Assembly: GCA_000165345.1 (NCBI GenBank)
Contig: CM000436.1
Coordinates: 672,001 to 736,000 of the forward strand
Length of the DNA: 64,000 nucleotides
Direction: 5' to 3'
Made by a program: the position numbers and the translations under genes. How positions within the stretch are numbered: position 1 is the stretch's first letter; every line of letters starts with the position of its first letter. The notes under the pieces are model-generated. The model had not been told where the DNA came from and did no database searches. It saw only the letters and a program-made list of their open reading frames with translations. This document shows positions 2,741 to 56,573 of this stretch, in pieces.

Positions 2741-5700
2741 ATGATCGATCCATTGGGAATCGGGAAAATAATCAATGATAAGTTTGCTCAAATTGGGGAA
2801 AATGTGTTAGGAACAGTTATTGATCAAATTGTGGACAATTCAAGTGCTCACTTAAGCAGTTTGAATGATTTCCAGTCGGTAAGTTTGTGTGCGATTCATC
2901 GAAATAGCAAAATTTATTATTTTATACTTAGTCCTCAATTATGAAGCTTGTACGTAAAGTTGCAGGGTCAAAGTTTTTAAACAAACAGCCAATAGTTGAA
3001 GTTGAGCCAAATATTTATGCAGTAAGGGACGAACAATCGGGTATATATAAATCTGTTCGTGACTCTAGGAGTTTGGGAGTTCTGACAGTCTCTATTGAGA
3101 GAGCAATTATCTCACCTATGGGATTTGATCGTAATATTCGGAATTTTATTACTAAAGAAAATGCAGAATGGGTTTTTGAATTGGCTTTGCAAGGCCAAAT
3201 GCTTGTAAGCCAACCTGTAAGCACTAAAGACTTTATATTGGAGATTCCAGTTAATAGTCCTATGCTTTTGTCCCCAACTAAGAGCTATGGGAATACTTCT
3301 TTAGCTTTTCTGGATGAGAAGCATGAATCAAGGCCAAGTTTTGGAGTTGAAAGTAGGAACTCAAGCGCAGAGAGAGAAAAGGAAAAGGTTTCTGGAGTAG
3401 GTGCCAGAGAGGTTTTCTTTAATTTCAAAGAATCTTTCCAAGTCACTGATATCTCTTCTGATATGAATTTGGATCTGATTTGTAGAGTTCCAATACAATG
3501 TAAACTTACAATAAATCAAAAATTTAACGAAGAAATTGTGGATGAAGATTGCTACTACTCTAAAAACTCTGGATCTATTTTTGTGAATGAATGTGATGAG
3601 GATTCTTCTCTTGTATCAGAAAACATTACTTCTACTAGCTCAGCCAATGCAGATTCTATTTCAAATTTGGGTTCCAACCCTCCAACAAATTTAAACCATT
3701 CTGTTAGTTTACGAATTAACCAAGAACAGAACAATTCATCTGGGACATCTTTTAAGCAGTATAAGATTATTAGAATTGAAAGAAATAAGCCAAACTGTAA
3801 AGAAATATTTGATAAACCGGATGGCGACAATCGCCCTTCTTCTCAGGAAATCCCCTCTCAAGATCAAGAATGGGAAGTCTTATATGAATGTATCCATTTC
3901 GGAAAGGTTACTATTCCAATTTCCTCTGTTTTTCAAGACAAACTTGCCGAACTACCCGTCTTGGACTATTCATTCTACAAAAATTCAACGTTTTATAAGG
4001 CAAATGAGAATCTAGTTTCTGTGTTTTGGAAATCAAGAAACACCAATTGTACTCAAGGCCATGAGAGTAATCTTTTGAAAAGCAATACTGTGGAAGAATG
4101 GACTTTGATTCATGGCAAAAAGGCGGACTCCTGTGATTCAATTGTTGTTAATAGGCCAAATGATTCAAACTTAAAAGATAGCCGAGCATTTCTAAAAGAT
4201 ATAGATCATGAAAGAGAGCCAAAATTAAGGTCCAGATTCAAAAGTGAGAGTAGAATGCATGATGGTTTAATCTCTTCTGGGAATGAAAAAAATGAAAGCA
4301 ATTTTTGTGAATATCAAAATAGAGTTTATAGTGATGAAAGCTCTCAATTTGAGGTCGGATCGAATTTCAAGCATTTAAATTGGTACCATTTATACCCAAG
4401 AACTAGTGAAATGGTTAAATATGTCAGGCCAGTGCCAGGAATCACAGAATACGGGCTTTCAAATCCAATAAAAACTTTAGGATTTATTCAGATCGGACTA
4501 AATTTTGAGACAGAGTGCTGTTCTAAGATTAGCCTTTTAACTAGCTCCTATTTGAGTATGGTAACTGAGAAGCCTATCACAAGGTGGATCCTTCCTTCAG
4601 GGTTTGAGCCACAGTATTTTCAGATGTATGCTGAAAGTTTAAAAATGTTACTAGAGCATTATCCGAGATGGATACCCAAATTCTTCTTCTTACTGAACTT
4701 CAGAATTCCGAGATCTAGGTTTGATAGGGTAATGATTTCCTTATTTTGGGCAATAATTACGTTTGGAGCTTTCAAGGCTAACAGTTTTTTCTTTTTTTCA
4801 TGGATTTTTATGGTTATCCTCCCATTATTAATCTCTTTAACATATAGATTTGGGTCGCAGATTGCTTCTAGAATCCATCAAGACTTCCTTACCAGAATTA
4901 ATATTGAAGAACAAAAGAGAAAGAGTATAACAAGTGCTCTCTCGCAAAAAGGTAATGCTAATATTAAACAGAAAAGTAATATTAGTCAAAATAATAAGAC
5001 GATGAATCTGATAAACTCTACATCTGGAAATATCTGGAAGATGTTCCAGCCTATACTAAATATTAAATATCACTCATCATTAATGATAGGCGATGGAGAC
5101 TTTATTGAGGAGAATATAGATGTAAAACCATTAAATAATGGCACAGGAAAAGAAAAGAAGGATTCTTCCTTTACCAAAATTGTGGATGAAATCTGTGAAA
5201 AGGACTTTTCTAATCTCATTCCCAAAGAAGTATACTTTGGTGATAAAGTAACAAGCAGAGAATACTGTACACAATACGATCTATCCAATGGGGACGGATA
5301 TATATGTTTGGCTAGAACATTAAATAACTCATTGTTAGGGAATAAGGAGAAAGGTAGAGAGGAAGAACTGAGAAGATTGAATTTATCGAACAATGATGCA
5401 TCAAATTTATCTCCACAGTTTGAAAAGCAAAAGTGGGAAAGAGCCCAAGAACATAAAGAAGATTTGAAAACAGAAAAATCAATGGAAGACAAAAATGATG
5501 AGGCAAGGTTTCGACAAAACCTACAAGGAAGTGGAGGAATTGTAGAGACCCCATTTGGAGAGCTAAGATTGGGTCTCAAAATTCCTTATGATAATAAGGT
5601 TGTATCTATTTTCTTTGATGATCAAGATTTGGAGCCTATTCAAACTCAGCTTTCTAACCTATTGGCAATAGTAGAACTTGTTCAGCAATCATTTGCAAGC

Positions 5701-6894
5701 TTTTCTACGCTTCTGATGAAGCTTAAGAACTCCCTTAATTTCGAGGATCCTCTACTTCCTTTTTTAACTTTGTCAATTCTTGTTATTCTTACTATTATAC
5801 TGAATCTGGGTCTCTATTTATTTAATCTTATCATGGGGAACCAGAAAATGGCATTCTTATTAAGAGGATTTCTTCTTATTAAGTTTATTCGTTGGGTTAT
5901 AATGAAGGATCCATTCAATAACGTTCAACTGGAGATATTCAATAAGAAACAAAGAATCGATCCAGACATTTTTGGTCAAAATCGTATTATTAAACCTCTT
6001 TTTAACAGATACTTCAAGCTAATAAGTTCTGAAGACCAAAACATGCTAATTCTTTTAAGCAGTTTGGAAATATACGACTACTACCCAGATAGATTTGTAC
6101 ATAGACAAGGAAATCTATGTAAGCCTGATGACTTAACAGAAAGAAACAAAGAGAAAAGACGAGGAGTTACTGAACCCATCCGAATTTTATCCATTAATAT
6201 GGAAGAGTATTTATTTTTCTACGTAGTAAAGTTTACATGTATCTATGTGCTCTTACTGGGTTCCTTCATTAATACTCTACAGTACATTTTTACTAGTAAA
6301 TTTTCGGCCACCTTTGCGAGGATATTACTTCTTTGGTGGTATTCTATTCCAGATATTAGAGAAATTCAGCATCGTTGCATCGCATCTACCCAGCTGATAG
6401 GAAATCTTGATGATTTACTCAACGATAATGAAGAAAATCCAATACACTTTAAAGTCATAAACGGAAATAGTTACGGTATTGGAGAGAACAAAAAGGCCGA
6501 AGAAAGCAGACCTGAGGCTTCTGGAACCAAAGCAGATCTCTTTTTGAAACAATTCTATTTTGGAAAGAATTCTAATTATATCAAAAAGAGCACTATCACT
6601 ACAAGTTCGATGAGCCAAGGAGAACAACTGGATCAAGAATCTAGTGCACTGAGTAGATCATTGGGAAGCTTACCTAGTAAAAGCAAATATTCTGAAACAG
6701 GTACACCATCAGCAACCTCTAGCAAAAAAAGCCTAATTGAATATATACTCCCAATTAACAAAGAGCAAAATTCAAATGTGAGGCAGGAATCTGATTCAAA
6801 GAGTGAGAAGAACAACACGCAATCTAGCTATGAGGTACTTGAGAGCTTGTTAGAAGGAATCTACCCAATTAATAAGTCTAAAAAACAAGATTAA
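2741..6894 (+). CDS. Large multi-pass membrane protein (~1360 aa), two exons; function unassigned
   Basis: ORF 2735..2944 (first ATG at 2741) ends its coding sense at a GTAAGT donor and joins ORF 2941..6894 in frame through a 53-nt intron (...NDFQS|SSIMKLVRK...). Hydrophobic segments include AIITFGAFKANSFFFFSWIFMVILPLLISL, LTLSILVILTIILNLGLYLFNLI and FFYVVKFTCIYVLLLGSFINTL. The stretch LSNLLAIVELVQQSFASFSTLLMKLKNSLNFEDPLLPF followed by a hairpin loosely resembles reticulon-homology or PRT_C-type hairpin regions (weak recollection). Confidence 0.7.
2879..2931 (+). other. Intron (53 nt, phase 0)
   Basis: Donor cag tcg|gtaagt at 2879 and acceptor ttatacttag| ending at 2931. Exon 1 (2741-2878) is a whole number of codons, and exon 2 starts at 2932 in the frame of ORF 2941. 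Confidence 0.6.
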
Positions 6895-7162
6895 AAGGAT
6901 TAAATATTAATAAAGATGTTTAAAATTTCTTACTATATAAATTACGCATAACTGCTAAGTTCCAATAGATTAATTATTTGGAATTAAACTAAATATTTAA
7001 TTTTAACAATCGTTTGAATTGTAAAATTTCCTTTCAGTGAACATTTCTGTATAGAAGTAATAATGAGCTCGACCAATTCATAATCAGTGCAAATGAAGGA
7101 AATATTGTTATGAATTTAACTAAAGAAACGGATATTCAGTTAAATAAAATTTGTCTATACTG

Positions 7163-7423
7163 CTAATCATTACAAATTTTTTGATTATATGCCAAATTAG
7201 AAGAGAAAATTGACTTTGAAATCCACCTCCAGTAAATAAAGTAACAAAATACAATTATTAGAGCCATAAAAAGACCTGAAAAATACCATTTCTGCTTTTC
7301 TTCTTCATATGCTAAAAGGAAAAGCAAAGATATATAGATTACACAAGTTATTATGTAAGCCACTGCCACCCAAAATTTACTATATACTGGAATAGTTCCT
7401 TTAAGTTTGAATTGTGAACTCAT
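7163..7423 (-). CDS. Possible small two-TM membrane protein (86 aa)
   Basis: The ORF track starts at TTG (7441). The first ATG at 7423 gives MSSQFKLKGTIPVYSKFWVAVAYIITCVIYISLLFLLAYEEEKQKWYFSGLFMALIIVFCYFIYW... with two clear hydrophobic helices. No recognisable family, and a short ORF could be chance in AT-rich DNA. Confidence 0.35.
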   Translation of the reverse strand: MSSQFKLKGTIPVYSKFWVAVAYIITCVIYISLLFLLAYEEEKQKWYFSGLFMALIIVFCYFIYWRWISKSIFSSNLAYNQKICND

Positions 7424-7566
7424 AACGTTATAATTCTTCAAATTTTACGCAAAGAAAGGTTATTTGGGGCCCTTAATAGTGGAATAGTATGCTTGTAACT
7501 ATTTTCGTGTAACAAACTTCGGTAATGTAATAAATGGAGTAACCAAATTTAGTTTAGAAACCATTC

Positions 7567-7717
7567 AACTCTGATGATGGAATAATCTTTTAGACGTTAC
7601 AGGCTCCTTAACTATAAATTTGTATTAAAAAAAATGAAATAATGTCGAAGTATGATAGATGATTATCTCTAGCCTTGAATTGTTAATTTTTGTTAAAATT
7701 GATTACCTGCTGAAGTT
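7567..7717 (+). ncRNA. Weak box C/D snoRNA-like candidate
   Basis: TGATGA (C-box-like) lies at 7572-7577, one nt after AACT (7567-7570). CTGA (D-box-like) lies at 7710-7713, immediately followed by AGTT (7714-7717), which can pair with AACT. The element sits in a 1.1-kb gene-free interval. Against it: the C box is preceded by C rather than a purine, the length (~150 nt) is high, and no guide or target was identified. Confidence 0.12.
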
Positions 7718-8211
7718 AAATATTTTATTTAAAGTTACTATTCTTTCTGAAAATTTTCTATCCAATAAACTATTTCGCTTACACTCGTTTCAAATAAGCC
7801 AGCGATTTAGATTAAAAAATATATATTCATTAGATATAATTACTTAAGTTTTACAGTAAGTACTCTTAATCTTGTAAGCTTTAATCTCAAATGTAGTTCT
7901 CTTCAAATTTCTATATTAAAGAATAAATTTGCATTTAAATATAGAATAAAAATATATTTATATTTGTTAAAGAAATGTGTGTTCATATATGCAATATTCT
8001 TTTGAAAAAATTGTGCATTTACAACTGGATAAGCTATTTCGATTTAGAAAAGGAAATGCAATTCAATTAATTCAAACGAAAATATGGATCTAAAATTGCA
8101 ACTTATCAGATATAAACTTTACACAGTTGTAACATATACCACCACAATATACTAGTTGCTTTCACTAACAAATTACCAACCACCTTTTCTTTGAAAATAT
8201 TTTATACTTAA

Positions 8212-8528: not shown

Positions 8529-10415
8529 ATGTCTCCTATTACATTGAAGCAATATGTTTTGCTTAGTTTCGGGCTACTTTTGGGGCTTTTTGTACATTTA
8601 TTAAGTGTATACGATTTTTACTTTTACCACATAATCATGCACATAACTATAACCAAAGCGTCCACCATGATAATTACAAATGCAGGTTTATTGACTTTAT
8701 ACTTTTTGGGTAAGGTTATTTTGAATATGTTTGTGGGAAGATTAAGAGATATTGAACTGGAAGAAATCATTGATCAAGGGCGAATGTTTTTATTAGATAC
8801 AATCTTTTTTTTGTTATTTAGTAGCCCAACAATAGATAATATAGAAGTTGGAGCAATGGTCCTTTCAAGATACATTACTCTTATTTTGGTTTTAAAGCTT
8901 TTACATTTAATTTCCCATATTCGAATTAACCACATGTTTGAATTAGACAGACCAAAAACTACTGCAATTGTTAGAATGGCAGCTTTGCTTAATATTCTCC
9001 TGATTATTGACATAAGTTTAGTTTTCAAGTATTATGGCCTATTGTCAAAAGATTCTACTCTGAGGTTGTGGGTATTTTTCGAGAGTGTTTCTTTGCTTGT
9101 TTCATGTAGCACTTCTATTGGTAAATACCTCGTTCATGTTGTAGATTTGAAGCTCCAAGCCATTCAATTATTAATGAGACAAGAGGAGGATGGAACCCCT
9201 GAACAAGGAAATACTCATTCTTCGGGAATGCAAGCTCATAACTTTGTATGGTCGAATAAGAATGCTATATTATTTTATTTGGAGGTGTTTGGCGATATAT
9301 GCTCTTTAATTACTTACCTTCTCTTCATTATTCTCTTCCTTGTGCTAAATCCTTCCAGAATTCCATTATATATTATGGGAGATATCTTCCACGTCTTAAA
9401 AGCTTTGTACAGCAAGCTATCATCATTCAGGAGATATAGAAAGCTCACAAAAAATATTGAAACCAGACTTCAGGAAGCTACACTTGAAGAGATTGAGAGA
9501 ATTGATACTTGTATTGTTTGTAGGGACACTTTGTATATTGGCTCAAAAAAGATTCCTTGCGGTCATGTATTCCATCTGGATTGTCTAAAATCTTGGTTTA
9601 TTCAACAGCAAACTTGTCCAATATGTAGGGCTCCCATAACTATCAGAGATGAAGAGCCTGAACATTCAGCAACTACTGCAGAAGAAGATAACAACTCTCC
9701 ACAAATACCAGAGGACCAGGATGAAACTAATGATATTAAAGATCCCACTTCTTCAGACCAAGCGAAACCCAACATCAATTCAGAGCCTACTAGTGCACCA
9801 TCATCTTCAGCGTTTAATTCAAATGAATCCGGGAGCTCAACTGATGTTAGCTCTGACAGTTTTAAGAAAATCTTCAAGAACTGGATAGTAAGTGAGCATA
9901 AAGCTAAACCTGTTGAAGAAACAACATCAACAAGAATGGCGAAGGACTTGAAAGAAACCAAATTTCAGATATCGAAACACCCTTTGTTTAAAAGCAAGCG
10001 TGATGACTTATATAGAAAGGTTTCAAAAGCTGCAAATAGAGGGGATCATATAAATAGCCTTCCTCCTCAGTTACTTTCACTACAACCTCAAATTTTACTA
10101 GAATTAAATAAAAATTTGGAACAGAGAACATTTGGAAGTGAATATGGAAGTCAAGAGTTTTCTGAAATGATGAGCAAAATGTATAAGAAAAATGCAGATA
10201 TTTGGTTGAATATGGTTAGCGAGCTCATCAAAGCTAAAGAACAAAATTGTATCCAACATTCGGTACCAATTGAACGAAAAAGCAGTATTCACATACAAGG
10301 AGAAAGTTTATCTAATATGTATGAAAGTAGTTCTAGGGCAGACCCCTTGAGAAATCTAATGGATGCTGTCAATAATCAGCTTAACGAAACAAAAAATATT
10401 AATAAGGCTGCTTGA
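8529..10415 (+). CDS. HRD1: ERAD E3 ubiquitin ligase, HRD1/synoviolin-like (multi-TM N-terminus plus RING-H2)
   Basis: The N-terminal half has about 6 hydrophobic helices. The RING-H2 at nt 9510-9626 reads CIVCRDTLYIGSKKIPCGHVFHLDCLKSWFIQQQTCPICRAPI, with the spacing and the W/QQ-TCP motif typical of HRD1. The C-terminus is low-complexity. The track start at 8523 is GTG, and the ATG is at 8529. Confidence 0.85.
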   Translation: MSPITLKQYVLLSFGLLLGLFVHLLSVYDFYFYHIIMHITITKASTMIITNAGLLTLYFLGKVILNMFVGRLRDIELEEIIDQGRMFLLDTIFFLLFSSPTIDNIEVGAMVLSRYITLILVLKLLHLISHIRINHMFELDRPKTTAIVRMAALLNILLIIDISLVFKYYGLLSKDSTLRLWVFFESVSLLVSCSTSIGKYLVHVVDLKLQAIQLLMRQEEDGTPEQGNTHSSGMQAHNFVWSNKNAILFYLEVFGDICSLITYLLFIILFLVLNPSRIPLYIMGDIFHVLKALYSKLSSFRRYRKLTKNIETRLQEATLEEIERIDTCIVCRDTLYIGSKKIPCGHVFHLDCLKSWFIQQQTCPICRAPITIRDEEPEHSATTAEEDNNSPQIPEDQDETNDIKDPTSSDQAKPNINSEPTSAPSSSAFNSNESGSSTDVSSDSFKKIFKNWIVSEHKAKPVEETTSTRMAKDLKETKFQISKHPLFKSKRDDLYRKVSKAANRGDHINSLPPQLLSLQPQILLELNKNLEQRTFGSEYGSQEFSEMMSKMYKKNADIWLNMVSELIKAKEQNCIQHSVPIERKSSIHIQGESLSNMYESSSRADPLRNLMDAVNNQLNETKNINKAA

Positions 10416-10508
10416 TTAATTGTAGATGAAAGTTGTGATTAGAATATTGAGATAGAGAGATATAGGTAGTTTATATTATAATATCTGAATAAAGAAGTGT
10501 ATTCATAT

Positions 10509-11726
10509 CTATATAGTTATAACGTAACCGGGGGGAAGTATATCCATTGCAAGATGGATATTACTTCCGATTACTATTGAGACCAATAGGGCAAACCAAT
10601 TAGGGTTTAGCTCAAGAGCCATTGCGAACTTTTCTTTATGTAGAGCAAGGATAAGTGCTTGAATTGCCATCTCTTTCCCTTTTGAAGAGTTATTAAGCTC
10701 AATAAGTCTTCTTGTAAGTACCGGTAATGGCTGATATTTTGCGATTGAAATGATTCCAATAAATGTGGAAGAGCACGGTAGGGTTAGCACCTTAAGAGTA
10801 TCTTGAATGAAAAGAGGAAACTTGGCTAAACTTGGATATAGATTAAATCCAATTACGGACAGATCATTAAAGCATTCTAAATCTGTTGGAGGTGAATCTG
10901 GAGAAAAAATGCTCACGTACTTTTCTGAATAGTAAAAACTATTTATTTCGTTACATATAAAATCCTTGAGAATTTTGTCGGCAGAGCATAGTGGAAGGAG
11001 CGAAACCACCTCAACCTGAGCCTCTGAGAGGTAGACTTTGGATAATCGGTTTTGATCTTGATGATCACCTCCATAATTTAGAAGAAAGTATTTAACTTCT
11101 ACATTAGGGGTTAAACTGCTTTCACTTATATCTTGAAATCTTGGAAATCCACCATTATCCAGCCTTTTGAGGCAACTAGAAGAATCCATGAGCCAGATTA
11201 CAAGTAACTGTCTTTCCTTCCCAATGTTTTGGTGCTCTTCTGTCCAATTTATATTATTTGGTCCTGGAGCACCAAAACTGTTATCAGTTCCATTCTGTAA
11301 TTCAGATCTTTCAATAATAGCACCTTCTTTGAGGAAATCGCTAAAACAATCTGGAATTGGCCTTATTTCTTGTTGATTAATACTATTTTGCACCTCTGAC
11401 TTAATTGGAAAAGAGTCCTGTTCAGTCTTAAGCTCTATATTGCTACTTGTTATTTGCTCCATCAACATATCTATAATCGTAAGCGACGGTACTAATGAAC
11501 AGCTGCCAATTGGATACCAGCTCACCTCCTTAAATCTATGGTTAGCAAAAACTAACTCCCTCTTCATTTCATCCAAGACAAAATAAACAGAAATCAAACA
11601 CTCAGAGTATTCCCTATTAAACTCATCATCTAGAAACAACCGTTTCAGTGCATCTTTGAAATACTCCAGACGCAGAATGGAGTGCTCACTATTAAAATCA
11701 ATGTCAAAAACTATTAAAATCGACAT
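10509..11726 (-). CDS. Hypothetical protein (405 aa); the N-terminus faintly resembles a vWA-like fold
   Basis: The track ORF starts at TTG (11753). The first ATG at 11726 gives MSILIVFDIDFNSEHSILRLEYFKDALKRLF... It is a long clean ORF with TTGGCGCCA 53 nt upstream of the ATG. Confidence 0.6.
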   Translation of the reverse strand: MSILIVFDIDFNSEHSILRLEYFKDALKRLFLDDEFNREYSECLISVYFVLDEMKRELVFANHRFKEVSWYPIGSCSLVPSLTIIDMLMEQITSSNIELKTEQDSFPIKSEVQNSINQQEIRPIPDCFSDFLKEGAIIERSELQNGTDNSFGAPGPNNINWTEEHQNIGKERQLLVIWLMDSSSCLKRLDNGGFPRFQDISESSLTPNVEVKYFLLNYGGDHQDQNRLSKVYLSEAQVEVVSLLPLCSADKILKDFICNEINSFYYSEKYVSIFSPDSPPTDLECFNDLSVIGFNLYPSLAKFPLFIQDTLKVLTLPCSSTFIGIISIAKYQPLPVLTRRLIELNNSSKGKEMAIQALILALHKEKFAMALELNPNWFALLVSIVIGSNIHLAMDILPPGYVITI

Positions 11727-11778
11727 CTTACATAAAACAAACGCTCTTAGCAAGCAAGCTTTACAAAATAAAAACTAC

Positions 11779-11787
11779 TTGGCGCCA
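11779..11787. promoter_or_regulatory. E2F-like TTGGCGCCA motif in a 97-nt tandem-gene spacer
   Basis: Read directly at 11779-11787 (GGCGCC core 11781-11786), between the stop of the SHMT-like gene (11824) and the ATG at 11726. Confidence 0.45.
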
Positions 11788-11823
11788 TTAATACCGACGC
11801 ACTTCCCACATGTAGGTGGTTAG

Positions 11824-13140
11824 CTAATCAAAATAAATAGTCTCCAGCTCACTGATTATTCCCGAAACCCTATCAAATATCAGCTTTAGCTTATTACTTT
11901 TAGTTATTTCTTCGTGAAAGATGTTTTCCCTAGCCTCAATTGGAATATCTAACTTCCCAACTTTGTTGAAAATCTCTACGCCCACATTTATACAATCTGA
12001 GATCAAATTGCCTAAAATTGTCATCTGTGATACAGAACCTTCTCTAAATGTATAGACAAGGGTCCCAAACATTAAGGAGGATCTATTTTCTCCAAACTTT
12101 CTGTATGTGTGCCTGATCTTGCACTCCGTTAAAATTTTAGAAATCAGCTCGCACGGTACTCCGAGCCTTTCGCAATCAACTGAAACAAGATGTGTATCTG
12201 TTCCATCTCCAAGTAGAGGAATTCCTGAGTCAAGCATTGTCTGCGCTAGAACAGCAGAGTTATCAAGTGCTGCTGCTACAAACTCACTAGTTCGAGAAGT
12301 TAACATTCCTTGAATTTGGACAGCAAATGACCCAATTTGATGATTATGAGGGCCTCCTTGGAGGCCTGGAAATACTGCGGAGTTAACTTTCTGAAATAAT
12401 CCAGGATTTTTGCTGTTGTTCAACATCAAGAAGCCACCTTTAGGACCACCCAAACTGCTTTGAGTGTTAGAATAAATGATGTCGCAATATCTGTATGGAT
12501 TGTTGTCCTCCCTTCCATACCTATCAAATGATATCAAAAGTGCAATTTCGCTAATATCAGCGACTAAAAAGATTTTAAATTCATTGCAAATCTCACTAAG
12601 CAGTCTGTAGTCTATGAATAATGTTAATACATCGGATGGAACAAGTAACAACTTGGGCTTTAATATCTTACATTTCTCCCTCAGGTCAACTATATCAAAC
12701 CCCCTACCTTTTTTATCCAAATTATAATATTCAACTTGGTAATAATTTTCCAATACAGTGTCAGAATCACCCCTAATCCTCAAAATTCGATCCCCCTTAT
12801 TCAGTAATCCCATACAGATGGCCAACTCAGCATGGCTTCCACTATAACACTGGATATTAAATAGCCATTCGTCATTGCTTTTTTTGTCTAATTTTAGAAA
12901 TTGTTTTAATCTACTTGCGCAGAGCGTTTCTATCTTATCAATAACGTGTGTTCCACCATAATACCTTGTTCCAGGAAAACCCTCTGAATATTTGTTTGTA
13001 AGGATACTCCCAAGGACTTTTCTCGCAGCATTAATCATAACATTTTCCTTGGGGTGTAAGTTTAAATGAGAATTCTGAAAATCTTTTTCCTTATTAATAA
13101 TATTGAATAACTCTTGATCAGATTCAATTGTTGTATTCAT
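11824..13140 (-). CDS. SHMT-fold paralog lacking the PLP lysine (predicted pseudoenzyme or regulatory subunit)
   Basis: Clear SHMT family signatures are kept: LTNKYSEGFPGTRYYGGTHVIDKIETLC (nt 12952-12999 encode TNKYSEGFPGTRYYGG) and VNSAVFPGLQGGPHNH (FPGLQGGP = nt 12349-12372). The canonical TTTTHKTLRGPRGG is YSNTQSSLGGPKGG (Q227-S228 at nt 12457-12462 replace His-Lys). HGGHLTHG is replaced by RGDSDTVLENY. ADxAH is ADISE. The C-terminal substrate Arg (..G[LV]RLGT..) is ..SLMFGT... Confidence 0.85.
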   Translation of the reverse strand: MNTTIESDQELFNIINKEKDFQNSHLNLHPKENVMINAARKVLGSILTNKYSEGFPGTRYYGGTHVIDKIETLCASRLKQFLKLDKKSNDEWLFNIQCYSGSHAELAICMGLLNKGDRILRIRGDSDTVLENYYQVEYYNLDKKGRGFDIVDLREKCKILKPKLLLVPSDVLTLFIDYRLLSEICNEFKIFLVADISEIALLISFDRYGREDNNPYRYCDIIYSNTQSSLGGPKGGFLMLNNSKNPGLFQKVNSAVFPGLQGGPHNHQIGSFAVQIQGMLTSRTSEFVAAALDNSAVLAQTMLDSGIPLLGDGTDTHLVSVDCERLGVPCELISKILTECKIRHTYRKFGENRSSLMFGTLVYTFREGSVSQMTILGNLISDCINVGVEIFNKVGKLDIPIEARENIFHEEITKSNKLKLIFDRVSGIISELETIYFD

Positions 13141-13398
13141 ACCTAAATGATGACGAAATTAAGTTATTAATATCAAAGATACAGTCTGTTTAGTAATTTA
13201 TTTAAGATTCTTTTTTTTTGTTACTTATTTCTAAAAAAGTGCTCGCCCCCTTTATTTGATTAAATTTTTCCCCACATGCAAGCATGTTTAACAGTGTTAG
13301 TTTCATCGTATTTACATAAATAAAATACTTATATAAATTAATTAAAATAATGAATAATGTGGATGTAAAATAGAACCTCTTATTTTTAATTAATATAA

Positions 13399-36665: not shown

Positions 36666-37562
36666 ATGAAAAATTTGAAATATAAATTTCTTTTATTTAT
36701 TGCAATTAGTCTTTTGTTTATTTCTAAAGTTAAGAGCAGCCGTATAATCTATTTAGATGAAAATGCAACAAGACTAGAAAGTAATGCAACTGAACCTATA
36801 TCTAACAATAAATTTCCATATCTTCCTAATATTAGTAATGATACTTTTAATAATATGCAAGAGAATATTATTAAAGCAGTTGTCGGATTCGATAGCTTTA
36901 TCTTCGATATTGCTAAAAATATTACAAGCGGAATGAGAATAGCACAATTTTTCATTTTAAACAAGACGAAGACTTTTATTCTTCCATTTGTTATGTTTCC
37001 AGACGAAAAAAGTTTTGAAAATTTTAAAAATTCTACTTCGAATGAGACAGAAGTTGACAATCTCAAGTTAGAGAAACTTTTTCCAATAAATATTAATTTA
37101 CTAAGTCCTAACAAAAGTAATTTCACAAATTCCACTCTTGAAGAAACTTTAATTAAACCTGAAATGCTCATTCCATATCTGAGAGGTAGTCACAAAACGA
37201 TAAGATACAATGACACAACAAATGAAAATTTAAAGAATTTTACAACTGTAAATTCAACGGATGATTCAGAAAAAATAATCAATTCAACATTGATCCGGCT
37301 GAATAAGTACTTATTAACACCAAATAATGGTTCATTGAACATAAATAATCAAACAAGTAGACTTAGATTTCTTCAGTTTACTTCAGCTTATGGATTAGAA
37401 GATATTAGTGATCAGCAATTTGGACAAGATTTAAATTATTTAGATGGAATCCCAAATGTAGGAGGTATTTCTTCATTTGCTCAAGATTATGATCAGTGGA
37501 TACCTTCTAATAATTTCGATTTTTATAATGGTTACGGATTTGACTTTTTGTTCATGGAATGA
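36666..37562 (+). CDS. Secreted protein extremely rich in N-glycosylation sequons (298 aa)
   Basis: The first ATG at 36666 gives the signal peptide MKNLKYKFLLFIAISLLFISKVKS. I counted 17 N-x-S/T sequons: NAT, NAT, NIS, NDT, NIT, NKT, NST, NET, NKS, NFT, NST, NDT, NFT, NST, NST, NGS, NQT. There are no Cys residues after the signal and no TM or obvious GPI tail. Confidence 0.65.
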   Translation: MKNLKYKFLLFIAISLLFISKVKSSRIIYLDENATRLESNATEPISNNKFPYLPNISNDTFNNMQENIIKAVVGFDSFIFDIAKNITSGMRIAQFFILNKTKTFILPFVMFPDEKSFENFKNSTSNETEVDNLKLEKLFPININLLSPNKSNFTNSTLEETLIKPEMLIPYLRGSHKTIRYNDTTNENLKNFTTVNSTDDSEKIINSTLIRLNKYLLTPNNGSLNINNQTSRLRFLQFTSAYGLEDISDQQFGQDLNYLDGIPNVGGISSFAQDYDQWIPSNNFDFYNGYGFDFLFME

Positions 37563-37570
37563 AAATAACG

Positions 37571-38107
37571 TCATCTTCTAAGTGAGATATCACTAACTAT
37601 AGAATCATAGGTGTTTTTATAAGTTTTGAATTCTTCTCCTAAGCTTTCAGCTACTAATTCTGTAAATTCGGCAAATAATTTATCTTTATCTTTGGAATCC
37701 TCATCCATAATAAGTGCCAAAGCTTCCGTTTTATTTTCAGAATGTTCAATAAACTTTATCATTTCCACTAATCTCGGGTTATTTCTTAAAAGAGATGAAA
37801 GTCTTTCGTTAGAATTCAATGCTTCTTTTTCCTTTTCAGTCAAATCGAATTGCTCTGTTTCCTCAATAGCGCTTTCTAATTTCATTTCATTGCATATTTC
37901 TTCAAAATTTTGATCTGATTGAAGTGAGTCACTTATTTGATTACTTTTAAGGCTACATTCTTCTCTTGAGTGAATCTGAAAACATTCCAACGAACAAAAT
38001 TTCCTTAAACAACACTTAAATTTATATTTTCCTATGTTAACTCCACAAATCACACAAATTTTATCATTGATAAGAGATCCTGTCTCAGATCCTTCCATTT
38101 TACTCAT
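37571..38107 (-). CDS. HIT-type zinc-finger protein (ZNHIT3/Hit1-like, box C/D snoRNP assembly family)
   Basis: The N-terminal CVICGVNIGKYKFKCCLRKFCSLECFQIHSREEC matches the zf-HIT pattern (C-x2-C...Y-[KR]-C-x2-C...CS-x2-C-x3-H). The following LSSLLRNNPRLVEMIKFIEHS resembles the ZNHIT3 middle region. Confidence 0.75.
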   Translation of the reverse strand: MSKMEGSETGSLINDKICVICGVNIGKYKFKCCLRKFCSLECFQIHSREECSLKSNQISDSLQSDQNFEEICNEMKLESAIEETEQFDLTEKEKEALNSNERLSSLLRNNPRLVEMIKFIEHSENKTEALALIMDEDSKDKDKLFAEFTELVAESLGEEFKTYKNTYDSIVSDISLRR

Positions 38108-38405: not shown

Positions 38406-38624
38406 AACTAATTAGATTTTAATGAAATTAAATTATGATTTTAGAAATAAAACAAGCAAAAAAATAAATTAAAACTTTAAGATTTTAACTTATTCGTATT
38501 TTATTTGAAAAATAAAAATGTTTTGAAGGCGCTGTAATATAATTCAGTTAAAATTAAAACTAAATGAATTTGTAAATAGGTTAATCAAAGAGATAAGATA
38601 TGATTTTGGAGATTGCTCATAAAT

Positions 38625-40712
38625 ATGGGTGTTATAAAAAGAACTCAGGTATTGATTGTTGGGATGGGCCCCGTAGGTATGACATTAAGCAATTTGCTTA
38701 ATTTATATAAAGTCGACAATATTATTGTTGACAAATTGACACAATTTTCGCCTATTCCAAAAGCCCACTACATTTCAAATCGCTCAATGGAGATATTTAG
38801 ATTCTGTAACAACTTAGATCAAGAAATATATAGGCTTCAACAACCTTTAGAATTTTGGAGAAGAATAACTTATCTAACTTATTTTAATAACTGCAAATTT
38901 GGTATTTTAGGAACTAAAGATGAATTCAGTAATTATAAGACAATTAATGGTTACTACTTAGATTTGGATAGCCAATCAGGAGTGGCAAATTATGATCAAA
39001 GCAAACTAAATAATTTATTGTACAAAAATTTGAAACAGTGTAAATATTCGCAGATAATGCTTGGAACATCTTGGAAAGGATATGAATTTGTTTCTAAAAG
39101 TGGAAAAGAAAAGGTAATTTCAAAGTTAGAGAAATCAAATTCAAATTTGGAATTTACTATAGAGAGCGATTTTTTAGTGGGAGCGGATGGAGCAAAGAGC
39201 CAGGTAAGGAAAGCTTTAAATAAAAATTTTAAAGGGCATGAATCTCTTCAAAAACTTCTAAATATTAATTTTATCTCAAAAGATTTGGCAAAAGTTTGTC
39301 TGGAACTCAAGCAAGAAATTATTGATGAGTGTAATAATATTAAATTAGTTCCCACCACAAGTATGTTATACTTTATTCTAAATCCAAGTTTAATAGGCGT
39401 AATGGTACTTCACGATATTAGTCAAGGCAACTTCGTGATCCATATTCCTTTAGTTGGTTCAAGCTCCGAGAAATTTGATTTAGATTTTTTTAAGCATATT
39501 TTCCCAAGTTTAATTAGCCAAGTATGCAAGAAAAACATTAATTTAGAGGTAAAATCTATTGAAACATGGAATATGTCAGCTCAAGTACTTGATTCGTTTG
39601 TTGATGAAAAAACAAATCGAATAGTTTTAATAGGAGATTCTGCTCATAGACTTCCCCCATCTGGAGGATTTGGGATGAATTTAGGAATTCAAGATTCCCT
39701 TAACTTAGCATGGAGATTAGCATTTGTATTAAAAAACAAATACGAAGAAGATATTAAAAAACAATTGAATGAGTTTAACATGGAGAGAATCCAACATGCG
39801 CAATATGCCTGTAATAACTCTATTCGGAATTTTTATAGGTCCCTATTTATTCCTAAAGCTATCGGATTGGACTGGAAAATAATATCTAGTATGCAGAAGT
39901 TAATATCTAATGCCGATAAATATATTCCTAATAAAATTTTAGAAGAGAAACCAGTCATGGATTACATTTATAAGTTAGGAATGTTTAGATTTTCAAAAAT
40001 ACTAAGGAATGAAAATAAAATGGAAAAGATAAAGATGCTTATTCAGGTTAGTTTAGTACTCCAGCTATATTAATATAAAACACTTTTTTAGGGATATATT
40101 AATTCAAGGGAAAATTCTTTATCTATCAACTTCAAAGGTCTTGATCTTGCATATGCATATAACTTTAATGCAGGAAATACAAAAGCATCTTTTGTGGCTC
40201 CAAAATCGCCGTTTAATTATTCCCCAAATACTTTACTAGGAATGAGAATCCCTCATGAATATGTTTATTTTCAAAGCCTAGATAAAATATTCAGAATCTC
40301 AACAGTAGACATTCCAATTGTATTTTCAGAAAGAGAGCCAAAGAATGTAATACTGATGTTTAGTGAAAAAAGGTAAGCAAAAAAAAGTATTACACAAAAA
40401 TTATTTGACTAAAAAATTAGTCTCGATAAAGTTAGAAAAACTTTTCCGAATCACGTTGTTGTATTTTGGACGTTAAAAAATGAAATCAATCAAAGTCAAT
40501 CAAAAATTTACACAAATCTAGAAATTTTGCCAACTGGAAAAATTAATAAAATTTGGACCTCAAAGCAGGTTAGAGAAAAATATTTGGAGAAATTGAATAA
40601 TATAAACAAAAATTCTATAATAAAAAATTATCGAGAACTAAATTTAAAAGATTTAGATAATTTATTTTTTGAAATTAGACCAGATGGTCATATAAAAAAT
40701 ATAGGATGCTAA
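38625..40712 (+). CDS. Class A FAD-dependent aromatic-ring monooxygenase (PHBH fold, FAD_binding_3-like, with a C-terminal RPDG domain); three exons
   Basis: Signatures: VLIVGMGPVGMTLSNLL (GxGxxG), LVGADGAKSQVRKAL (DG motif) and LIGDSAHRLPPSGGFGMNLGIQDSLNLAWRLA (GD motif). ORF 38613..40073 joins ORF 40194..40376 in frame through a 45-nt intron. ORF 40527..40712 carries the family-typical C-terminal motif FFEIRPDGHI, so it belongs to the same gene. The exact second splice junction is unresolved. Confidence 0.75.
40047..40091 (+). other. Intron 1 of the monooxygenase gene (45 nt, phase 0)
   Basis: Donor att cag|gttagt at 40047 and acceptor cacttttttag| ending at 40091. Exon 2 starts at 40092 (GYINSRENSLSINFKGLDLAY...) in the same frame as ORF 40194. 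Confidence 0.7.
40347..40430 (+). other. Intron 2 of the monooxygenase gene; boundaries ambiguous
   Basis: Frame 0 is closed only by TAA at 40374-40376 and reopens immediately. The best-looking donor (aag|gtaagc at 40373, phase 2) and best-looking acceptor (ctaaaaaattag| at 40419) are mutually out of frame. In-frame options are aat|gtaata (40347) with ataaag| (40430), or a weak gtgaaa donor (40363) with the 40419 acceptor. Confidence 0.3.
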
Positions 40713-42316
40713 GCTTCAACATTCTTAGGAGGCATTTTTTTTAGCAAACTTAATATTTCATTACCAAGTGTGAGTGATTTTTGAAGCGCAATATTAAGAT
40801 CTCCTTTACTATTAGTTTCCATCCAACCAGTTTTAAAAATAGGACAGGGAAAACAATTATTTTCAAATGAATAATCTTTATTTCCATTAAAAATATAATC
40901 ATATTTTGGTTTGAATCCCAATGATGTGATCAATAATTGGCAAGGTAAATAATATTTCTCCTTCTCATTTAACTTTGTTTTATCAGTAATTGGTTTAGAA
41001 TCACGAATATTTCTCGCTAATTCTATTCCTTTGATAAACGGGATTGATTTTTTTTTCACATTATTCTCTGGAATATTGACTTCTTCAGTTTTAATATTTA
41101 CAGTAGAGAAGAGGTTTTTAAAATGTATGTTTATTGTTTTATCATTATGGAATATGTTATCATTATTGGCTATGTATTCTTGGTGATTATTAACCATTTC
41201 CTGAAATATAGACTTCATTTTCAAAAATCTTCTTTTTATTTCTGGTCCGCTTCTTTCTAATTCGAATAAGCTAGTTCGGTCCTGTGAAAGCTCAAAATCT
41301 TCTTGAGACATCATTACTCTGATATTCATTCCATTAGTAGAATTGTATTTTGATTTCCTAGACTTATCAATAAATTCCTTTAATAATGGATATTTAAAGG
41401 AATTTTGAATCCAACCTCTCCGTCCAATAATAAATATGTTTTTGAACAAAGGTCGATAGATATCGGAGTTTGAATATTTAGATGATGTGTCAATTAAATT
41501 TAAATAATCAGGATTCAAATATTTGTTTTTTGAAAGTTGTTCATGGGTATAGAAAGATAAAAGTCTAGTAATATCCAATGAAACATTGCCATTTCCAATG
41601 ATAACCGCATTCCTCTCACTGGAGTTTAATATATAATTTCTAAGTATATCAGAACCATATCCATATTTAAAGTCTTCATTTTCGTTTTTAAATGGGACGC
41701 TAATTTCAGTAGAAGATAAAGGACTCTTATATTCAAAAAATTGATTGTTTTTTTTTTTAAGGTAATTCAACTCTATATCCATATCAATTCTCTCATTATC
41801 AATAAGTTTATTATTGATCGAATTAGAGTGTTCATTTTTTGTTGGATATAGCATTTTTTTAAACATTGGGTGGCTATTATAATAAAACACCCAATCTCTA
41901 GAAGAAAATACTCCTCCTATAATTTTATTCTGTAATTCATTATTCATATATTTCACTGGAAGAGTATGGAAACTTTGTAATCCACCAACTGCTAAAACCA
42001 CTACATCGTATTTCCTCTTTAATTCTTCTAATTTAACATCATATCCCAAAGTCACATTTCCATAGAATTTAATATCATCAGAATATTTTTTAAAAAGAGA
42101 GTTATCAATACTAGAAATCGATTTTTTTAGATCATGTCTATCTGGTGCAATTCCATATCTGAGTAGCCCAAATGGTTTATCTAAGGAATCTAATAAATCT
42201 ATTTTGATTGCAATGTTTTCCTTTTTTGATCTTGCCAGCAAATATTTGGCCAAGTAACAACCTGATGGGCCTGCACCAACAATACATAACTTATATATTG
42301 GCTTGTAAGGTCTCAT
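40709..42316 (-). CDS. ARH1: Adrenodoxin (ferredoxin)-NADP+ reductase, ARH1/FDXR-like, with low-complexity insertions
   Basis: The first ATG at 42316 (the track starts upstream at a non-ATG codon) gives MRPYKPIYKLCIVGAGPSGCYLAKYLL...PFGLLRYGIAPDRHDLKKSI...YDVVVLAVGG. This aligns with FDXR ICVVGSGPAGFY...PFGLVRFGVAPDHPEVKNV...YHAVVLSYGA. The C-terminal GWMETNSKGDLNIALQKSL resembles GWVKRGPTGVIATTMTDSF. Confidence 0.85.
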   Translation of the reverse strand: MRPYKPIYKLCIVGAGPSGCYLAKYLLARSKKENIAIKIDLLDSLDKPFGLLRYGIAPDRHDLKKSISSIDNSLFKKYSDDIKFYGNVTLGYDVKLEELKRKYDVVVLAVGGLQSFHTLPVKYMNNELQNKIIGGVFSSRDWVFYYNSHPMFKKMLYPTKNEHSNSINNKLIDNERIDMDIELNYLKKKNNQFFEYKSPLSSTEISVPFKNENEDFKYGYGSDILRNYILNSSERNAVIIGNGNVSLDITRLLSFYTHEQLSKNKYLNPDYLNLIDTSSKYSNSDIYRPLFKNIFIIGRRGWIQNSFKYPLLKEFIDKSRKSKYNSTNGMNIRVMMSQEDFELSQDRTSLFELERSGPEIKRRFLKMKSIFQEMVNNHQEYIANNDNIFHNDKTINIHFKNLFSTVNIKTEEVNIPENNVKKKSIPFIKGIELARNIRDSKPITDKTKLNEKEKYYLPCQLLITSLGFKPKYDYIFNGNKDYSFENNCFPCPIFKTGWMETNSKGDLNIALQKSLTLGNEILSLLKKMPPKNVEA

Positions 42317-54520: not shown

Positions 54521-55468
54521 ATGAACGTGATTTTTGAATTAATTAGAAATGGAATAAGGCTAGTTCGACTAAAAGTTGGGTCCTTTTCAAGGGACAATTT
54601 CGAAGAGTTTACGAGAGTTGTTTATGACGAATATTCAGGATTCCATATAGTTGAAGAATTTGATATTGCTGAAAGTGAGTCTTTTTTAATAGTTTCTAAG
54701 GAATGTTTAATACAAAACTGCGAATTTAAATGTTGTTCTTCTAATTCTTCTGAATATGTCAGGGAAATTAAAAGTGGAGCAAATCAAATAAATTTGGATC
54801 CAAATTGTAAAAGCTTATCAAGACAACAACAATTTCTTGATTTTGAATCCACTAAGATAAATGCGCATGAAAGCGGAAGCGCATTAGCATGCATTACCCC
54901 CACAAAAACGAGTAGCATGGATATAAGTAGGAATAGGAGGGATGATTTTTTAATAAACTCAATATTTGAAGATACAAATGAGCCATATTTTTTAAAAGGT
55001 TTAATAAATTCTGAAAAAGAAAAGTTTGAATTAACTAACTTTGTAGATACACCTATTTTATTTCGAGAAGATTGCGTGACTCCGAAGCTCCCAGATTCAA
55101 AATATAGACAAAATTTAAAAAATGATAAAATTTGTTTTACTCCAGATGGCTTTGATTGCCACTTTGACGATAATACAAAACTAAACGATGATTTTAAAAA
55201 GTCTGATATATTACTGCTTCTGAGATTAAAGAGAAAAAAACTGGCTATGCTCGAAAGCCAGTTAAAAAGAGATGTAAAACTATTAAATATAAACGGTTCT
55301 TCTGAAAATGAAAGCAAACCTGATAACCTCAGCTCAATAGAAAAAATGGTGAGGTGCCCTGCTCAGCTTTATTTCATTAAAAGAAGGATTGAAAATATTA
55401 AGGAAAATATTGAAAATACAGAAAGGGATATTGCTATATTAGAAGAAAAGACTTCTGAAACTTACTAG
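54521..55468 (+). CDS. Hypothetical protein (315 aa) with a C-terminal coiled-coil
   Basis: The track ORF starts at TTG (54488) and the first in-frame ATG is at 54521 (MNVIFELIRNGIRLVRLK...). The C-terminal LKRKKLAMLESQLKRDVKLL...IKRRIENIKENIENTERDIAILEEK is heptad-like. Confidence 0.55.
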   Translation: MNVIFELIRNGIRLVRLKVGSFSRDNFEEFTRVVYDEYSGFHIVEEFDIAESESFLIVSKECLIQNCEFKCCSSNSSEYVREIKSGANQINLDPNCKSLSRQQQFLDFESTKINAHESGSALACITPTKTSSMDISRNRRDDFLINSIFEDTNEPYFLKGLINSEKEKFELTNFVDTPILFREDCVTPKLPDSKYRQNLKNDKICFTPDGFDCHFDDNTKLNDDFKKSDILLLLRLKRKKLAMLESQLKRDVKLLNINGSSENESKPDNLSSIEKMVRCPAQLYFIKRRIENIKENIENTERDIAILEEKTSETY

Positions 55469-55469
55469 G

Positions 55470-56573
55470 TTATTCAGGGCCAAATATGTATGTTAGTATG
55501 CAGTAGGTAACTAATTCTGACTCAAAATTGCGAAAAGTGTACTTATTTTTATTTAAATCAGCTATTACCAGCTTATCGTCAGATAATTCAAGTTCTACTG
55601 ATTTTTTTGTTTTGTTGTTTTGGCAATTAATTTTTATTTTTTCTTTACAGGAGAAGTAAATTATTCCTATTTTACTCCCTGGAATAAAAGATTCTGAATC
55701 TTTTCCTATAATAAACCCGGTATTTGCAGGCTCTATTGATAAAATATAAATAGATTTTGATAAGATATTTAGATTTCTCCCAAGCTTGGCATTCAGCTCG
55801 TTTGGAAGATATTCTATTGCGTTAAAATAAACAAGCATTTCATCTTGAATCTCGTCGCTTTCTAATACAGCATATCTGAAATTTGAACTAAAACTGGATT
55901 TTGAAACTGAATTATTGGTCAATAAACCTTGATAATCCATCTTAATTAAAGCTTTGTTAATTTTATTTCTCATCTCTTCACCGAACCAAGTCGATTTCAT
56001 AGTTATTCCAAATTCATTAAGTTCATATAACATTTGATTGTCAATGATATTCACTATATCTTTAATTATATATGGAGATGCCCACCTAGAAATATCGCAA
56101 GTTTTAGAGCTGTAATTGTTTTTCACTTCATCCATAATTTTATCAACACAGTAGTAAATAATTGATTCTGAAAATACCGTAATCATCAGGTTGTACTCCG
56201 AAATATCTAATTCATTCTCTTTGTAAATATTATTCGATTTTCCAGTACATATTTCCTTGAGAGAATTGTATGCAAGAAATGCCTTTTTGATTATCATAGG
56301 TAATAACATATAAATAAAGTTTTTTTTCAAATATTTATCGATCAAGTTCCCAATTTTGTCTTCTTTTGATCTACTAAAATTTTTTATCCCAATAAAGCCT
56401 TCAATCTTTGAATTACAACTTGAATCTTGATGGTAGGAGCTGCATCTTGTCCCCGTCCTTTTTTGAACTCTCTCCATTATTTTATTTCGGGTTTCACAAC
56501 CGTTAAGCAATTTAACAACCAATTGGAATATCTTCTCAGTTTCCTCATCACTCCATACCATTAATTTATCCAT
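55470..56573 (-). CDS. Hypothetical protein (367 aa); the N-terminus is weakly Myb/SANT-like
   Basis: The ATG at 56573 gives MDKLMVWSDEETEKIFQLVVKLL..., and W-[ST]-x-EE-x2-[LIF] recalls a Myb/SANT first helix. The rest is unassigned. Confidence 0.6.
   Translation of the reverse strand: MDKLMVWSDEETEKIFQLVVKLLNGCETRNKIMERVQKRTGTRCSSYHQDSSCNSKIEGFIGIKNFSRSKEDKIGNLIDKYLKKNFIYMLLPMIIKKAFLAYNSLKEICTGKSNNIYKENELDISEYNLMITVFSESIIYYCVDKIMDEVKNNYSSKTCDISRWASPYIIKDIVNIIDNQMLYELNEFGITMKSTWFGEEMRNKINKALIKMDYQGLLTNNSVSKSSFSSNFRYAVLESDEIQDEMLVYFNAIEYLPNELNAKLGRNLNILSKSIYILSIEPANTGFIIGKDSESFIPGSKIGIIYFSCKEKIKINCQNNKTKKSVELELSDDKLVIADLNKNKYTFRNFESELVTYCILTYIFGPE

Follow-up and report, generated by a model that had tools for sequence, protein, structure and literature searches.

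How closely two convergent genes can meet, and whether genes that meet so closely also work together, are the questions raised by a stretch of 64,000 nucleotides (nt) from GenBank assembly GCA_000165345.1 (contig CM000436.1, positions 672,001 to 736,000 of the forward strand). This whole stretch is called the window below, and positions are counted from its first letter. The window has a G+C content of 32%, and two proteins encoded side by side in it, a flavin adenine dinucleotide (FAD) monooxygenase on the plus strand and a ferredoxin reductase on the minus strand, are both 100% identical to Cryptosporidium parvum entries. Their coding sequences (CDSs) run toward each other and overlap at 40709–40712 by 4 nt, which read CTAA on the plus strand and TTAG on the minus strand. 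We consider it likely that a gene of the CoqF type here meets a gene of the Arh1 type tail to tail, that the overlap is a neutral by-product of genome compaction, and that the two enzymes plausibly belong to a single pathway.

Stop-Codon Overlap and Gene Models

Direct reading of the plus strand gives GGA TGC TAA at the end of the monooxygenase, with the stop codon TAA at 40710–40712. The reductase stop codon TAG is the reverse complement of CTA at 40709–40711, and its open reading frame (ORF) ends at 40709 in the program-made ORF list. Bases 40710 and 40711 are common to both stops, and the site lies within ctaagcttca (40709–40718). The initial annotation, made from the sequence letters and the ORF list, had already stated that the two stops have two nucleotides in common, and both the direct reading and the ORF list bear this out. 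Because no 3′ intergenic DNA is left, the 3′ untranslated region (UTR) and the cleavage/polyadenylation site of each transcript would have to fall inside the last exon of the other gene. The overlap is already present in GenBank annotation; it involves no new kind of system and does not point to a new mechanism.

The plus-strand gene comes in three pieces, all in one frame and separated by two short introns. Exon 1 (38625–40046), which appears in the ORF list, starts with ATG (MGVIK...), corresponds to residues 1–474 of WRK34025.1, and encodes the FAD-binding and catalytic domains, with GxGxxG at residues 13–18, DG at 188–189, and GD...GGFGMN at 337–352. Intron 1 (40047–40091; 45 nt, GTTAGT...TTTTTAG) was placed from the sequence, its translation, and the spliced product WRK34025.1; it is in frame, yet holds a stop codon. 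Exon 2 (40092–40372) begins the C-terminal extension, and intron 2 (40373–40420; 48 nt, GTAAGC...AAATTAG) has a position conserved in relatives. An acceptor for intron 2 at 40435, which would make a 63-nt intron, was ruled out, as the deposited 664-amino-acid (aa) protein fits the acceptor at 40420. Exon 3 (40421–40712) ends in LFFEIRPDGHIKNIGC followed by the TAA at 40710–40712 and forms the C-terminus of WRK34025.1. The spliced model is identical, residue for residue, to that GenBank protein (C. parvum, 664 aa), and the adjoining record, WRK34026.1, is the 535-aa reductase. We took the contig of WRK34025.1 to be the telomere-to-telomere (T2T) assembly of C. parvum, and the paper on that assembly describes gene models curated with Iso-Seq and stranded RNA-seq.

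The 4-nt overlap is real because 40421–40712 is the true last exon of the monooxygenase. Exon 3 itself is real, given that its protein is conserved, that the intron position is kept across the genus, and that WRK34025.1 is identical to the model. Its frame stays open for 99 codons before the stop, where a stop would be expected about every 10 codons (p ~2e-5; none of 20,000 shuffles stayed open). Searches with tblastn turned up exon 3 in every relative that has the monooxygenase gene. Five intestinal and two gastric species of Cryptosporidium keep its protein sequence, with the ending ..E[IV]RPDGHI.., and its RPDGH or RPDG motif also stands at the C-terminus of the C. andersoni, Vitrella, stramenopile, and plant homologues. 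Between C. parvum and the chipmunk genotype, the exon shows 14, 10, and 23 differences at codon positions 1, 2, and 3, respectively, an excess at the third position; of the changed codons, 19 are synonymous and 20 non-synonymous. Intron 2 has the same position in the chipmunk genotype, C. canis, two assemblies from the Logan collection, and C. andersoni. In two species, the exons flanking it lie in different frames, and splicing is therefore required.

Deposited monooxygenase models differ in length (482, 489, 568, 653, the last labeled "partial", and 664 aa). The four shorter ones fall short of the overlap, and three of these four lack the conserved C-terminal exon. The 568-aa model, KAL5367005.1, runs into intron 2 and stops at TAA 40377–40379, giving no overlap. 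QOY40027.1, from C. parvum IOWA-ATCC, is a "partial" monooxygenase cut 11 codons before the stop (window 40680–40712), just short of the reductase CDS, a truncation that seems to have been made to get around the overlap in annotation. Intron 2 of C. canis has an apparent GC donor (GAG/GCAAGT; locus ~5885–5935). The deposited C. canis protein reads through this intron and ends early, leaving the annotated model without its last exon.

Identity of the Monooxygenase

The Pfam profile PF01494 (FAD_binding_3) matched the monooxygenase with an E value of 1.8e-56 over profile positions 1–346 of 349. Residues G13, G15, G18, D188-G189, G337-D338, and G347-G348-F349-G350 were invariant in family alignments, which identifies a class A flavoprotein monooxygenase. 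The Pfam match and the alignments agree with the initial annotation, which had described such an enzyme with a C-terminal RPDG-type domain. Its further statement that the protein lacks Coq6 architecture also holds, by length, extension, and best solved matches. Coq6, UbiH, UbiF, and UbiI are shorter than ~510 aa and have no extension, whereas this enzyme has 664 aa and a C-terminal extension. No Coq6/UbiH chain was found among the 60 solved matches listed, the top of which were TfdB-like enzymes, HbpA, RebC, and polyketide hydroxylases. About 250 residues follow the GD motif region, encoded in part by exons 2 and 3, and they can be aligned with the plant, Vitrella, and stramenopile homologues all the way to the C-terminus, RPDG motif included.

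The protein is much closer to a group of eukaryotic proteins of 600–800 residues than to its solved relatives. In this group, a land-plant (Sesamum) "putative polyketide hydroxylase" of 712 aa matched by BLASTP with an E value of 4e-82 (30% identity over 627 residues), and the family profile matched the same protein over its full length (E 4.7e-156). The best solved relatives were the PieE/TfdB-like structure 6u0p and HbpA (E 4.6e-25 to 3e-23). Foldseek with the predicted fold against the PDB gave a full-length match to PieE/HbpA at a template modeling (TM) score of ~0.7–0.8 and ~18% identity, and the relatives it found were all bacterial. PieE (6u0p) and HbpA (4cy6, 5brt) are, like the Cryptosporidium protein, three-domain group A monooxygenases with a C-terminal thioredoxin-like domain; unlike it, they are bacterial enzymes of secondary metabolism or catabolism. 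The 6u0p entry is deposited as a 2,4-dichlorophenol 6-monooxygenase and annotated for piericidin A1 biosynthesis. Piericidin is a ubiquinone-like molecule.

Xu et al. (2021) describe precisely the eukaryotic group above as CoqF, a flavin-dependent enzyme that hydroxylates C6 when plants, algae, and apicomplexans make ubiquinone, and they count C. parvum among the parasites that bear it (PMC8654299). In their analysis, CoqF forms cluster I, of plant, alga, and SAR proteins, TfdB and HbpA fall in a sister cluster of bacterial and fungal enzymes, and cluster II enzymes were found to be inactive as CoqF (PMC8654299). The C-terminal extension, ~226 aa in the Arabidopsis enzyme AtCoqF, is absent from Coq6, UbiH, UbiF, and UbiI (PMC8654299). 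Baierna et al. (2026) found TgCoqFMO to be essential for ubiquinone synthesis in Toxoplasma, where it probably hydroxylates both C5 and C6 (PMC13369981). The monooxygenase of the window resembles CoqF (Arabidopsis At1g24340) and TgCoqFMO (TGGT1_232540) in having a class A core and a long C-terminal extension with an RPDG-type motif. The likeness extends to a retained catalytic His, to nearest bacterial relatives of the TfdB/HbpA kind, and to a presence that tracks ubiquinone synthesis across Cryptosporidium. Placement in the CoqF subfamily is suggested by the match to the plant protein (E 4e-82) against ~1e-25 to the bacterial TfdB/HbpA enzymes. The question of UbiH/Coq6 versus PheA/TfdB-like ancestry, which the initial annotation had left to phylogeny, is answered in part: by length and best solved matches the protein is not Coq6-like, and by E value it lies nearer the CoqF type than the bacterial TfdB/HbpA enzymes. 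We regard it as a homologue of the CoqF type and a probable ring hydroxylase of ubiquinone biosynthesis.

A family-profile search of a collection of 5.8 billion proteins, run behind a word pre-filter, brought up no protein named as CoqF, and an exhaustive search of representatives with cluster look-up gave one named land-plant homologue, the Sesamum protein. Individual CoqF residues were compared via this Sesamum homologue, in which the His and Phe numbers are one off those published for AtCoqF. The catalytic His (His88 in AtCoqF) is kept as H48 in ..PKAHYISNR.. and aligns with Sesamum H89. The column of AtCoqF Phe283 likely corresponds to F250 in the MLYF motif, or to L252 given the +1 offset in Sesamum numbering. 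The column of Phe121 differs and is taken up in the Discussion.

The Ferredoxin Reductase

The reductase CDS (40709–42316, minus strand) is a single exon of 535 aa, running from ATG at 42316 (MRPYKPIY...) to TAG at 40711–40709. A TTG-initiated ORF of 565 aa was dropped in favor of the ATG at 42316 on the basis of ortholog alignment. The product is identical to WRK34026.1 and UniRef Q8IS94, "putative NADPH:ferredoxin oxidoreductase". Its best solved relatives were bovine adrenodoxin reductase (1cjc; E 2.2e-22) and Mycobacterium tuberculosis FprA (E 5e-22), where the reported stretch covers the N-terminal 150 residues only. The motifs of the adrenodoxin reductase/Arh1/FprA family are all present, namely the FAD-binding GxGxxG, the NADP-binding GNGNV(A/S)LD, the GRRG arginines, and a C-terminal GW...G. 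Within them, G44, G46, G271-N272-G273-N274, D278, R329-R330, G527-W528, and G535 were invariant in an alignment of Cryptosporidium, yeast, and ciliate proteins. Motifs and solved relatives together support the earlier naming of the minus-strand gene as an adrenodoxin reductase.

The protein also carries Cryptosporidium-specific insertions and a distinctive end. In the alignment, the C-terminal ~50–70 residues that follow the GW helix in yeast Arh1 and the ciliate homologues are not present in the intestinal Cryptosporidium proteins, which terminate right behind that helix (..PKNVEA). In gastric species the protein is ~17 residues longer. We read the tailless reductase as a shortened variant that still belongs to the family, and its C-terminus appears, from the alignment, to have been trimmed while the two genes converged.

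Conservation and Gene Loss across Cryptosporidium

Synteny around the pair is kept throughout the genus, in the order of a SET/bromodomain gene, an M16 peptidase, the reductase, the monooxygenase, a zf-HIT gene, a gene of ~290 aa, and a GMC oxidoreductase. Three Logan assemblies were included in the comparison (SRR18693150, SRR31860986, and SRR31861040). The monooxygenase is intact in C. parvum, C. canis, C. andersoni, C. serpentis, and two further assemblies. In chipmunk genotype I (GCA_004936735.2), it is present at 80–88% identity with two frameshifts. One is a 7-nt tandem duplication (ATGCTCT ATGCTCT) in the SMLYF motif and the other a 1-nt deletion further on (locus ~8930–8955 and ~7960–7975, respectively), and the deposited protein bypasses the duplication by an artificial intron. 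These frameshifts may be either an assembly error or a very recent inactivation. The Logan assembly SRR18693150 holds a monooxygenase pseudogene (locus 5611–7660) with frameshifts and 29 in-frame stops over five aligned segments, two of which overlap. Its GD/GGFGMN motif is destroyed, while the reductase is intact and a TTAA junction with shared stops is still present.

The monooxygenase was absent at the syntenic locus in C. felis, C. xiaoi, and C. ryanae. C. xiaoi, a close relative of C. bovis, lies outside the published tables, and the loss was compared over species with a published ubiquinone status. According to published comparative genomics, C. parvum, C. hominis, C. meleagridis, chipmunk genotype I, and C. 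andersoni retain ubiquinone synthesis and the alternative oxidase, and both have been lost by C. felis, C. ryanae, and members of the C. bovis group (PMC8767354, PMC7371110, PMC5146892). Judged from the syntenic loci, the loss of the monooxygenase matches the loss of ubiquinone synthesis, and the match is complete for the comparable species. A putative ubiquinone hydroxylase activity of the C. parvum enzyme has indirect support from the absence of the gene in C. felis and C. ryanae, where ubiquinone synthesis is lost, and in C. xiaoi, which belongs to such a group.

C. ubiquitum often retains syntenic remnants of the genes that it has lost (PMC8767354, PMC7371110, PMC5146892). At the C. felis locus (5589–5756), an exon 3 relic of ~170 nt (..YFLDIRPGGHIKNI) immediately follows the stop of the intact reductase on its 3′ side. 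The relic is 48% identical as protein and is interrupted by a single stop; nothing else of the monooxygenase is left at this locus, and the zf-HIT gene was not detectable there. The relic could represent a reductase 3′ UTR or, equally, a chance deletion boundary.

The initial annotation had proposed synteny as a check on the pairing. The pair is kept within the genus wherever the gene is retained; the pairing disappears with the monooxygenase and is absent in Toxoplasma and Vitrella. In Vitrella brassicaformis (locus 1–1986 and 10001–13285), a homologue of the monooxygenase and a GMC oxidoreductase gene share a strand, the former ~8 kb downstream of the latter. The order GMC oxidoreductase ... 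monooxygenase is the same in Vitrella and Cryptosporidium, with the GMC likeness at family level (E 2e-5).

Spacing of Convergent Genes

A TTAA palindrome, which reads TAA on both strands, forms the junction in C. canis and two Logan Cryptosporidium assemblies, with 2 nt shared between the stops as in C. parvum. The stop-to-stop gap is 2 nt in the chipmunk genotype and one further assembly, and it widens to 75 nt in C. andersoni and 72 nt in C. serpentis, both gastric species. Because the junction is shared or reduced to a 2-nt gap across relatives, the comparison indicates that the ends of the two genes have lain this close since an early stage of the intestinal clade.

Convergent pairs of ORFs of at least 150 codons were surveyed over the 64-kb window. 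Seven such pairs were found, with stop-to-stop gaps of 208, 93, 46, 27, 8, 1, and −4 nt, the last being the present pair once spliced. One pair (54521–55468, plus; 55470–56573, minus) has 1 nt between its stops, and another (36666–37562, plus; 37571–38107, minus) has 8 nt. The initial annotation treated the overlap as notable in itself. That view gives way here: the overlap sits in the tail of the general distribution of convergent gaps in the window and is not exceptional, because other pairs also nearly abut. It is real and evolutionarily stable, an extreme of general compaction, and ordinary for the C. parvum genome. Microsporidia and nucleomorphs are further compacted genomes with overlapping convergent genes. 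UTR overlaps are frequent in C. parvum (PMC12179316), and compacted eukaryotic genomes with overlapping convergent genes or 3′ UTRs, among them C. parvum (PMC12179316), likewise have no 3′ spacer, so that transcripts have to end within the adjoining gene. The present case differs from general compaction in that the CDSs themselves overlap (by 4 nt), stop sharing is kept in several species, and the products possibly belong to one pathway.

Discussion

The explanation that we favor can be set out in steps. Compaction has removed all 3′ intergenic DNA between the monooxygenase gene and the gene of the mitosomal Arh1-type reductase, and the mature mRNAs of both would be partly complementary. The 4-nt overlap would most likely be a neutral, tolerated by-product of this compaction, as for the other tight convergent pairs in the window. 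The reductase may pass electrons to the hydroxylase via a mitosomal ferredoxin, a route proposed for the Toxoplasma CoqF-type enzyme and known for yeast Coq6. It also serves iron–sulfur (Fe-S) cluster assembly, which would account for its survival where the hydroxylase is lost.

Yeast Coq6 receives its electrons from Arh1 and Yah1 (PMC13369981). In Toxoplasma, which is without Coq6, proximity labeling with TgCoq5 enriched an Arh1-like protein together with TgCoqFMO, and homologues of Arh1 and Yah1 are the proposed electron donors of TgCoqFMO in the authors' model (PMC13369981). The C. parvum pair resembles the yeast system in that a flavin-dependent ubiquinone hydroxylase may be fed by a ferredoxin reductase and a ferredoxin, and the reductase in the window is an Arh1 homologue. 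The yeast Coq6 and Arh1 genes are not known to be neighbors. The hydroxylases also differ, the one here being TfdB/HbpA/CoqF-like rather than of the Coq6/UbiH type, and a ferredoxin supply for the CoqF type is proposed only (PMC13369981). The initial annotation had held the phenol-hydroxylase-like architecture against a functional link, an objection that falls away since that architecture is the one of CoqF (PMC8654299). It had also called electron coupling speculative. We still infer the coupling, and it is more plausible than was then held because the CoqF architecture matches and Arh1/Yah1 are proposed as donors of TgCoqFMO (PMC13369981). By analogy with these systems, electron coupling between reductase and hydroxylase is plausible in C. 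parvum. The chance that one of the two neighbors of the reductase would be a ubiquinone gene is ~0.4%, or ~1% with Fe-S assembly genes included, as a post hoc estimate from rough, assumed counts (~8 ubiquinone genes among ~3,900).

Several observations weigh against this explanation. Flavin monooxygenases of class A normally use NAD(P)H directly and have no need of a ferredoxin chain. The column of AtCoqF Phe121 holds Ile in every Cryptosporidium sequence, for example Ile81 of C. parvum in WRRITY and the Ile of C. andersoni in WRRISY. It is Phe in the Vitrella, ciliate, stramenopile, and plant homologues (Sesamum F122, 33 residues after the His as in AtCoqF). The change to Ile is conservative and hydrophobic, and the CoqF signature is not kept. 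A mitosomal location of the enzyme is putative: no presequence was found, as the protein starts 12 residues before GxGxxG and the upstream frame is closed (window 38613–38670), and targeting would have to use other signals. Homologues in C. andersoni and Vitrella have an N-terminus just as short, and the plant homologue is ~47 residues longer. The Ile and the missing presequence are features in which the Cryptosporidium enzyme departs from CoqF and its plant homologue. The pairing is not obligatory either, with the reductase intact in all species compared, also where the monooxygenase is lost, and in Toxoplasma and Vitrella the two genes were not found side by side. Cryptosporidium genomes are in general highly conserved in gene order, which makes conserved adjacency a weak sign of selection. 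Finally, the UTR overlap is predicted from the geometry of the locus, and any antisense effect is hypothetical.

An alternative is that the monooxygenase is a xenobiotic- or phenol-degrading hydroxylase of the TfdB/HbpA/PheA kind, unrelated to ubiquinone, with the reductase beside it by coincidence. Its public names ("phenol 2-monooxygenase like"), HbpA and the TfdB-like enzyme as closest solved structures, the Ile in place of Phe121, and the lack of an N-terminal targeting peptide all fit such an enzyme, and the neighbor chance of 0.4–1% is a post hoc figure from assumed gene counts. We nevertheless regard this alternative as unlikely. The protein is far nearer the plant/alveolate CoqF-type group (E 4e-82 vs. 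~1e-25), and the gene is gone in lineages without ubiquinone synthesis. Phenol catabolism would also be of no evident use to an obligate intracellular parasite of minimal metabolism. Xu et al. report a CoqF for C. parvum, and cluster II enzymes are inactive as CoqF (PMC8654299).

The overlap could also be a selected regulatory device, in which antisense pairing or transcriptional interference couples the expression of hydroxylase and reductase. Wherever an intestinal-clade species retains the gene, the stops share TTAA/CTAA or stand 2 nt apart; in C. felis, ~170 nt of exon 3 are still there after the reductase stop, as would fit a 3′ UTR role; and the products are plausibly in one pathway. We think it improbable all the same, considering that unrelated convergent pairs in the window are equally tight (1, 8, 27, and 46 nt), that gastric species have a spacer of 72–75 nt, and that the reductase works without its partner gene in three species. 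AATAAA occurs 39–49 nt past the reductase stop in three species only (C. parvum, the chipmunk genotype, and C. canis). We do not claim it as a reductase poly(A) signal, since it is missing from the other species and would be fairly common in AT-rich DNA anyway. A broader version, to which we give equally little credence, would make hydroxylase and reductase a selected tail-to-tail unit, with exon 3 doubling as the reductase 3′ UTR and polyadenylation region and the obligatory antisense overlap tuning the ratio of the two enzymes. The exon 3 relic of C. felis would then have survived because the exon doubles as the reductase 3′ UTR, and, if true, the adjacency would be independent genomic support for a ferredoxin chain feeding the apicomplexan CoqF-type hydroxylase.

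It is very hard to credit that there is no overlap, with the monooxygenase ending at TAA 40377–40379 as in KAL5367005.1 and 40380–40708 being 3′ UTR or intergenic DNA, for although several deposited models end there or earlier (482, 489, and 568 aa), exon 3 is open over 99 codons (p ~2e-5) and conserved as protein with coding-type substitutions, its RPDGH motif matches the C-terminus of the C. andersoni, Vitrella, stramenopile, and plant homologues, intron 2 is conserved in position and must be spliced in other species to restore the frame, and the newest C. parvum annotation has the 664-aa product, the T2T models being curated with Iso-Seq and RNA-seq.

What the tail-to-tail meeting of a CoqF-type and an Arh1-type gene adds to existing annotation is the 664-aa gene model, the probable CoqF-type assignment, the co-loss with ubiquinone synthesis, and a neighbor that is a homologue of the proposed electron donor. 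For annotation, modeling or targeting of the enzyme should use the 664-aa product. The sharing of stop codons illustrates the extent that compaction can reach. The host has no CoqF-type hydroxylases, which are proposed drug targets in apicomplexans, and the adjacency of the two genes, together with the co-loss, would lend small, independent support to a ubiquinone role of the enzyme and to a ferredoxin-dependent supply of its electrons.

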